The notes under the pieces were generated by a model. The model was given only the letters and a program-made list of their open reading frames with translations. It made no database searches and was not told the DNA's origin. Below, piece after piece: positions 12,233 through 13,497 of a stretch of DNA of 64,000 nt; position 1 is the first letter of the stretch, and each line of letters begins with the position of its first letter. Made by a program: the position numbers and the translations under genes. The DNA comes from a virus (taxonomy: Duplodnaviria; Heunggongvirae; Uroviricota; Caudoviricetes): IMG/VR virus record IMGVR_UViG_2529292913_000008. One strand, written 5' to 3'.

Positions 12233-13497
12233 GCGAGTTGAGTTATCTGGAAAAATTGCTGGATGGGGTTGAGGTTGAGTGGAAACCCTTGAAGGATGTT
12301 TGTGATTTTAAAAATGGATTTGCATTTAAAAGCAGCTTATTTAAAGAAACTGGGTTACCGATAGTTAGAATCACAAATATAGATGGATTTAATGTTGACT
12401 TAGATGAGGTGAAATACTTTTCACTAAATGATTACAAGGAAGATTTATCCTCCTTTGAGGTATCTATGGGAAATATATTGATTGCAATGTCAGGTGCCAC
12501 TACAGGAAAAGTGGGAATTTATAAAAAAGGAACAAAATGTTATCTTAACCAACGGGTTGGAAAATTCATACCCAAAGAAAATATTCTAAACAATAATTAT
12601 TTATACCATTTTTTATTGTTAAATACAGAGACTATTTATATCCTCGCCGGGGGCGGAGCACAACCGAATCTAAGCTCAAATGCATTGATGTCAAAACTAC
12701 TCATCCCAATTCCCTGCCCGGATAATCCGGAAAAATCCCTCGCCATCCAGTCTGAAATCGTTCGGATTCTGGACAAATTTACTGCACTTACCGCTGAGCT
12801 TACCGCTGAGCTTACCGCTGAGCTTAACATGCGTAAAAAACAGTACAACTACTATCGCGACCAGTTGCTGAGTTTTAAAGAGGGTGAGGTTGAGTGGAAG
12901 GCATTGGGAGAAGTAGCCAAAATACAACGTGGGGCATCCCCCAGGCCAATTGTTAATTATCTTACTGAACAAGGAAATGGTATCCCATGGATTAAAATCG
13001 GAGATACTATCCCCGGCTCTAAATACATTGACAAAACCTTACAAAAAATAACTGCAGAGGGTGCCCAAAAATCGCGAATCTTGAACCCCGGTGATTTCGT
13101 CATTTCTAACTCTATGAGCTTTGGCAGACCATATATTTTAAGGATAACCGGAGCTATCCATGATGGATGGGCATCAATCAGCAATTTTGGTGAAAAATTA
13201 AATGCTGATTATCTGTATCACTATCTTTCATCAAAAAAGGTGAAAAATTATTGGGAAAGTAAAATCAATAGCGGGTCGGTCAGTAACTTGAATGCAGATA
13301 TTATAAAAACATTACCAGTGCCATTGCCTGATAAACAGAAACAAGAGCGAATATCTGCTCTGCTCGATAAATTCGACACCCTGACCAACTCCATCACCGA
13401 AGGTCTCCCGCGTGAAATCGAGTTGCGCCAGAAACAATACGAGTACTATCGTGACTTACTGTTCAGTTTCCCGAAACCTGAAACTGTCAGTAATTAA
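12229..13497 (+). CDS. hsdS: Type I R-M specificity subunit HsdS (type IC-like, 3 TAEL repeats)
   Basis: 422 aa with two target-recognition domains and conserved central and C-terminal regions; central [13 protein letters not shown] repeat as in the EcoR124I/II family. Confidence 0.85.
12787..12822 (+). repeat. 3 x 12-bp tandem repeat CTTACCGCTGAG inside hsdS (encodes TAEL x3)
   Basis: Perfect triplicated 12-mer seen directly in the sequence. Confidence 0.9.

Follow-up and report, generated by a model that had tools for sequence, protein, structure and literature searches.

Our analysis indicates that the tandem array at positions 12787-12826 of the window (the whole 64,000-nucleotide stretch of DNA that was analyzed) is in all likelihood the length-setting TAEL repeat of an intact type IC HsdS subunit, carried on a P1-like phage-plasmid, in which one-unit changes would give a new specificity. 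On the plus strand, Tandem Repeats Finder reports this array with a period of 12, 3.3 copies, 100% matches, a score of 80, and the consensus CTTACCGCTGAG. In the raw sequence, positions 12780-12839 read tactgca-cttaccgctgag-cttaccgctgag-cttaccgctgag-cttaacatgcg; three perfect CTTACCGCTGAG units are followed by CTTA and encode (LTAE)3L at amino acids 187-199. Codon 187 of the open reading frame at 12229-13497 begins at base 12787, the unit is in frame (CTT ACC GCT GAG, i.e., L-T-A-E), and the translation has TAEL three times at HsdS residues 188-199. The original prediction had placed three perfect copies at 12787-12822; the repeat finder, the raw sequence, and the translation all agree with it, the periodicity extending 4 bases past 12822. 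No other perfect tandem array of at least three copies and a period of 4-30 exists in the 64-kb window; 200 shuffles yielded 0 such arrays, and about 2e-10 are expected analytically.

The gene containing the array, hsdS (12229..13497, plus strand), encodes a specificity subunit of 422 amino acids, identified by its translation, by Pfam Methylase_S, and by alignment with 7bst_A. It has two Pfam Methylase_S stretches (152.8 bits), and a phmmer search of the PDB aligned it over its full length with the EcoR124 specificity subunit 7bst_A (404 amino acids; E = 5e-83). The N-terminal, central, and C-terminal regions are near-identical in this alignment, and both target-recognition domains (TRDs) align poorly. 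The N-terminal TRD (approximately 12292..12702, ~aa 22-158), for the first half-site, and the C-terminal TRD (approximately 12913..13356, ~aa 229-376), for the second, have low identity to EcoR124 HsdS. Between them lies the central conserved region with helix D1 (12703..12912, ~aa 159-228), near-identical to EcoR124 HsdS save for an extra TAEL, and the subunit ends with a C-terminal conserved region (13357..13494) that is identical to EcoR124 and holds helix D2, the partner of D1; all these features are on the plus strand. HsdS residues 225-389 also match the M. jannaschii S subunit 1yf2_A. The predicted placement of the array in the central region of HsdS is confirmed by the comparison with 7bst_A, in which the sole gap in the constant regions is one TAEL, since there are two units in the solved protein. 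With three TAEL units in D1, the segments ILDKF...YYRD (D1) and LLDKF...YYRD (D2) are each 32 residues long, an equality that fits the literature's remark on an optimum number of units (see below). The 7bst_A entry is named “EcoR124II specificity protein” yet has two TAEL units, the EcoR124I state; its database name is out of step with its repeat number. A 25-nt direct repeat with 84% identity (12267-12291 and 12882-12906), encoding GVEVEWKPL and GEVEWKAL, opens each half of HsdS as a vestige of the subunit's internal duplication, and the D2 helix resembles a degenerate version of the (LTAE)3 stretch in D1.

The three subunit genes have the type IC order, hsdM-hsdS-hsdR. The type IC methyltransferase subunit gene hsdM (10676..12232, plus strand; 518 amino acids) overlaps the hsdS start with its stop codon by 4 nt (ATGA), and after a 121-nt gap follows hsdR (13619..16735, plus strand), a full-length restriction/translocase/nuclease subunit of 1038 amino acids whose ATG is at 13619, the program-made open reading frame beginning at a GTG at 13559. 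HsdM matches TIGR00497 hsdM with 646 bits and EcoR124 HsdM (7bst_D) over its full length with 1142 bits, against only 66 bits for the type IA EcoKI M. HsdR matches EcoR124 HsdR (2w00_A) with 2288 bits (residues 1-1038 to 1-1038) and TIGR00348 with 767 bits, and it has the Pfam domains HSDR_N, ResIII, SWI2_SNF2, T1R_D3-like, and EcoR124_C (241 bits). HsdM and HsdR are therefore close to the EcoR124 prototypes and HsdM is distant from EcoKI, while HsdS has the family-specific constant regions around two variable TRDs and, in its central conserved region, a tandem tetra-amino-acid repeat, (LTAE)3L; such a repeat (TAEL, LEAT, SEAL, or TSEL) is characteristic of the type IC family (PMC10030836). 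By homology, the locus is a complete type IC (EcoR124-family) system with TRDs unlike those of EcoR124. A scan of the operon for promoters (PRES, PMOD) gave matches no more numerous than those in shuffles. Inverting hsdS shufflons (pneumococcal SpnD39III/tvr) likewise diversify type I specificity within a lineage, but they depend on multiple hsdS copies together with inverted repeats and a recombinase. Within 9.5-17.6 kb of the window, there is neither a second hsdS nor an adjacent recombinase, and no inverted repeat exceeds 44 nt at 70% complementarity. The locus is thus not a shufflon, and this reading was rejected.

The first 25 kb of the window match the P1-like phage-plasmids P1, P7, SJ46, RCS47, and vB_EcoM-673R5 at 95-98%, with 61-80% of this query covered, and many E. 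coli plasmids of ~90-140 kb match the same segment. Judged by these matches, the carrier is a P1-like phage-plasmid. The hsd system occupies a variable region between hot and a phosphatase gene, with pacB, pacA, lpa, a DUF968 gene, doc, phd, humD, and hot as upstream neighbors and a HAD/PNKP-like gene downstream. The window is 100% identical over 21,269 nt to AIGC01000010.1 (GCA_000249735.2; contig L007).

That the copy number of the repeat sets the spacer of the recognition site has been known since the late 1980s. The precedent cited in the original prediction, in which two versus three copies in EcoR124I and EcoR124II change the spacer by one base, stands in the literature as described: EcoR124I has two TAEL units and recognizes GAA N6 RTCG, and EcoR124II has three and recognizes GAA N7 RTCG (Loenen et al. 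2014, PMC3874165). The EcoR124II repeat DNA, read from unit-deletion primers, agrees with that of the window in both the 12-mer and its flanks (PMC10644984). The 2014 review also describes the role of helix D1 of the HsdS coiled coil in TRD spacing, reports that hybrids with altered repeat numbers shift exactly as predicted, and notes that EcoDXXI and EcoPrrI likewise have three units, called “the optimum number” (PMC3874165). In Neisseria gonorrhoeae NgoAV, natural variation in LEAT copy number tracks N6 and N7 motifs by PacBio sequencing (PMC6789123).

Most probably, the two DNA-reading domains of HsdS are kept apart by an antiparallel coiled coil composed of D1 (central) and D2 (C-terminal). 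Each four-residue unit would add about one helical turn to D1 and so shift the second domain along the DNA by one base pair; with three units, D1 equals D2 in length and the spacer would be N7, and with two units it would be N6. As the three units have identical DNA, their misaligned pairing would remove or add exactly one in-frame unit, whether it came from unequal crossing-over between sister copies, from replication slippage (the cause named in the original prediction), or from short-patch conversion by another type IC hsdS, and the outcome would be an active enzyme with a new specificity. The predicted site of the window allele is therefore written half-site-N7-half-site, and that of a two-unit form would have the same half-sites with N6; both are inferred from homology with EcoR124I/II, EcoDXXI, and the hybrids, relatives that have other TRDs.

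The best full-length database matches to the window hsdS are 12 bases shorter. Two plasmids, pSvP1_F (NZ_MN510446; L001) and ETEC1731 plasmid unnamed6 (NZ_CP122822; L002), have two units in an hsdS whose other 1,257 nt are identical to those of the window, so that the genes differ by one 12-bp unit only, as in an EcoR124I/II-type switch. The backbone of pSvP1_F has 0 mismatches to the window in 9,969 nt, its gaps being the unit itself and two single-base gaps near 18 kb, and that of the ETEC1731 plasmid has 0 mismatches over 5,585 plus 3,749 nt. With two-unit twins of the window allele in which 1,257 of 1,257 other bases are identical, the proneness of the array to gain or loss of one unit, as originally predicted, has a natural counterpart, and the alignments indicate that such a change of the window allele has occurred in nature. 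A search for encoding contigs found the exact 422-amino-acid three-copy protein on at least 10 contigs of independent public assemblies, and a protein cluster listing gave 91 contigs for the two-copy protein, two counts obtained by different routes. A more distant allele with 20 substitutions (pAW1.7_1, L003, and also L027) has two units. Because of this single outgroup allele, the three-unit state of the window may tentatively be read as the gain of a unit. In plasmid L008, which has the three-copy gene, the differences from the window lie mainly at 20-23 kb, with no differences in hsd; over 14.6 kb of alignment, one three-copy carrier plasmid departs from the window at 64 positions. One event suffices for the window allele. 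In the ETEC1731 plasmid, hsdR is split by IS1203 of the IS3 family (L002 positions 8199-9508, equivalent to 14436-14438 of the window, the junctions overlapping by 3 bp); this plasmid would modify DNA without restricting it.

Altogether, three alleles were found in two copy-number states and otherwise identical. A different type IC allele, located in a genomic island at ~3.018 Mb, has two units in TUM18530 (NZ_AP023190; L004) and three in TUM18780 (NZ_AP023197; L005); over 30 kb, a single mismatch is the only difference besides the 12-nt gap. The two clinical chromosomes (4,894,739 versus 4,894,769 bp) appear clonal, since the array positions are 9 bases apart after 3.02 Mb, and the pair is a predicted natural specificity switch between sister isolates. 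Likewise, the HsdS proteins of the Z1322HEC0001 chromosome (four units; L014) and of the IMG/VR contig L044 (three units) differ in the array alone. These isogenic pairs were picked because of their difference and yield no unbiased rate.

To count the repeat states in the population, 5,426 complete E. coli genomes were searched with n units framed by 30 nt of flanking sequence on each side. At the default E value, BLAST breaks mismatched copy numbers into two overlapping perfect pieces and identity bands become uninformative; E-value cutoffs were therefore chosen so that only full-length ungapped matches pass. Two units were found in 558 records at 567 places (309 chromosomal and 258 on plasmids), three units in 407 records at 410 places (125 and 285), and four units in 15 records at 15 places (12 and 3). 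Two copies are thus somewhat commoner in E. coli than three, and four are rare. There were 1,240 places with any match in the E. coli set, those beyond the typed arrays having diverged flanks or units, and the number of matching places per genome reached 6-7, with a median of 1. Among IMG/VR contigs, 19 have two units, 8 have three, and 0 have four.

The unit is CTTACCGCTGAG in most Enterobacteriaceae. It is CTTACAGCTGAG (three copies) on a Salmonella Tennessee plasmid and the E. coli PCP06021 chromosome, CTGACAGCCGAG (three copies) in Providencia, and CTTACAGCCGAG (two copies) in Moraxella atlantae. Units therefore differ between lineages at synonymous sites and are identical within an array, the only exceptions, each with one difference between units, being Shewanella sairae and one four-copy allele. 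A simple explanation is that unit turnover, i.e., loss and reduplication, homogenizes the arrays, because independent evolution of the three Providencia units would need nine parallel changes. A degenerate-codon scan of one genome per species found 5 species, too few for a cross-species distribution of copy number but of use for this comparison of units.

There are several other explanations for the two copy-number states. In one of them, the change comes not from misalignment within the array but from short-patch recombination with a second type IC hsdS of another unit count in the same cell, through the near-identical central region of ~200 bp that such genes share. Many E. coli strains have several type IC loci, as the upper range of matching places per genome implies; ETEC1701 has a two-copy array on its chromosome and a four-copy array on a plasmid; and alleles with different TRDs share a conserved central region. 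However, the median of one place per genome leaves most hosts without a donor, and the homogenization within arrays that carry private synonymous variants (Providencia and Moraxella) is most simply attributed to turnover inside the array. Since the flanks are identical, conversion is inseparable from slippage or unequal exchange in these data, and we consider it unlikely.

The array might also be a phase-variable locus that changes at ~1e-3 to 1e-5 per generation, so that cultures would mix N6, N7, and N8 enzymes as a form of bet-hedging by the phage-plasmid. Copy-number differences on backbones with 0-1 substitutions in 10-30 kb are in line with this idea and imply that copy number can locally change faster than point mutations accumulate, and the units are kept identical within arrays across lineages. 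Against it, the isogenic pairs were selected for differing, each assembly has one state, and the persistence of the three-copy allele on at least 10 contigs and of the two-copy allele on 91 resembles clonal stability. Moreover, the repeat has only three units of 12 nt, in frame, in a single hsdS with no adjoining recombinase, and so short an array of 12-mers is a weak substrate for slippage next to classical contingency loci. The literature also describes EcoR124I and EcoR124II as variants that arose by unequal crossing-over, not as a contingency locus (PMC3874165). Phase variation at such rates is therefore rather improbable. From the unchanged alleles on many contigs, we judge that the switch is real but rare, acting on an evolutionary or epidemiological timescale and not as a contingency locus.

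Under a static model, the family would have three units as its symmetric default, and the two- and three-copy forms would be old and separately inherited, with no ongoing switching. D1 and D2 are indeed equal in length at three units, three has been called the optimum (PMC3874165), and both states are common and stable in the population. This model is contradicted by the three alleles that each exist in two otherwise identical states, by the isogenic pairs on backbones with 0-1 substitutions, and by units that are homogenized within arrays and diverge between lineages, and it has very little probability. An origin of the array in sequencing or assembly error is practically inconceivable, as 36 bp is much shorter than one read, the identical three-copy gene occurs in NCBI and Logan assemblies of independent samples and in the IMG/VR contig L034, and the same protein recurs on at least 10 independent contigs.

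Four-copy arrays were inspected at 9 of the 15 loci (L011-L015 and L052-L055: NZ_CP122941, NZ_CP041448, NZ_JBQXPD010000002, NZ_CP148583, NZ_AP027622, NZ_CP122832, NZ_CP122923, NZ_CP121157, and NZ_CP073976). All nine have a lesion in or at hsdM or hsdS, and hsdR is full length in all nine. The lesions are insertions of IS3, IS5, or IS1, a frameshift, or 5' truncation. On the ETEC1701 plasmid, hsdS is interrupted by IS3; Z1322HEC0001 has a frameshift in hsdM; PSJ-12 has an IS3 insertion in hsdM and an IS5 insertion in hsdS; and on pDAM_1, the promoter and the first 18 codons of hsdM were removed by IS5. In a lineage with the system in the leuX island (YPE10, ETEC1730, ETEC1703, E89, and MB20), hsdS is 5' truncated and hsdM is lost or split off by IS elements. 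The set therefore amounts to about five independent lesions on four alleles. Among the two- and three-copy loci used for comparison, L028 is the only one in which hsdM is not contiguous, and one, L041, has a truncated hsdS. As a lead from small numbers and partly shared lineages, this suggests either that four units may not be tolerated in an active enzyme or that a four-unit enzyme may be nonfunctional and the system then decays.

A broader proposal would combine these observations: the TAEL array would be a real N6/N7 switch within populations, selection would hold active systems at two or three units, and four units would be a dead end that either precedes or compels inactivation of hsdM or hsdS. 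If it were true, N6 and N7 subpopulations would alter the host restriction barrier as well as the methylation imprint that P1-like virions carry, and the four-unit dead end would explain why hsdM or hsdS is damaged and hsdR intact in nine of nine cases. We regard this proposal as a whole as having a rather low probability. The association of four copies with damaged systems is the only point that is potentially new, and it needs controls.

Among known systems, EcoR124I/II is the most similar to that of the window, with which it shares the 12-bp unit CTTACCGCTGAG, the HsdS constant regions, near-identical HsdM and HsdR, and the gene order. The window represents the EcoR124II state with three units, and its two-unit twins mirror the EcoR124I/II pair. 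Both TRDs differ, however, from those of 7bst_A, the only solved type IC HsdS, so that the half-sites of the window enzyme are not expected to be GAA and RTCG, and the carrier is a P1-like phage-plasmid, whereas that of EcoR124 is the conjugative plasmid R124. EcoDXXI and EcoPrrI, likened here by their description (PMC3874165), have three TAEL units and N7 spacers. NgoAV, a type IC-like system, resembles the window system in that the number of its tetra-amino-acid repeats varies naturally between strains, with N6 or N7 (PMC6789123), but it has another repeat unit and host, and its HsdS is also truncated by a homopolymer frameshift, a kind of tract that plays no part here. In type I systems that are phase variable by simple sequence repeats, the repeat likewise lies inside hsdS and its length alters methyltransferase specificity, and TAEL and EcoR124I/II are explicitly cited by Atack et al. 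2020 (PMC7383803). Those systems, however, have long tracts of short units that shift the frame (ON/OFF or truncation), whereas the window has three copies of a 12-nt unit in frame.

The mechanism itself is textbook. What is new here is a system with TRDs unlike those of EcoR124 on a P1-like carrier, and no new question is opened by it. A natural, otherwise isogenic, predicted N7/N6 pair with non-EcoR124 TRDs provides a second test case, which bears on how an extra helical turn in one strand of the coiled coil is accommodated, a matter called unclear by the 2014 review (PMC3874165). Circulating E. coli plasmids and chromosomes undergo one-unit changes on backbones that, across the 9-30 kb aligned, have 0-1 substitutions; such changes matter for the reading of barriers to plasmid and phage transfer and of methylome differences between near-identical isolates.

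Two further features of the carrier were observed. An insertion of ~1.3 kb at ~7529-8853 of the window encodes a 402-amino-acid DDE_Tnp_1 transposase (7538-8746, minus strand); it is present in L007 and absent from the otherwise near-identical contigs L006, L008, and L009, suggesting that an IS element inserted recently between humD and hot. At 38930-39135, a GATC-rich stretch is followed by five iterons of ~21-22 nt (TTGACTRYRCRCGATTT...), directly 5' of an open reading frame of 313 amino acids with weak matches to Rep3_N and Rep3_C and of a ParA-type ATPase containing an HTH_54 domain (open reading frames at 39154-40095 and 41366-42562); together with 38930-39135, they probably form the replication origin and partition module of the phage-plasmid.
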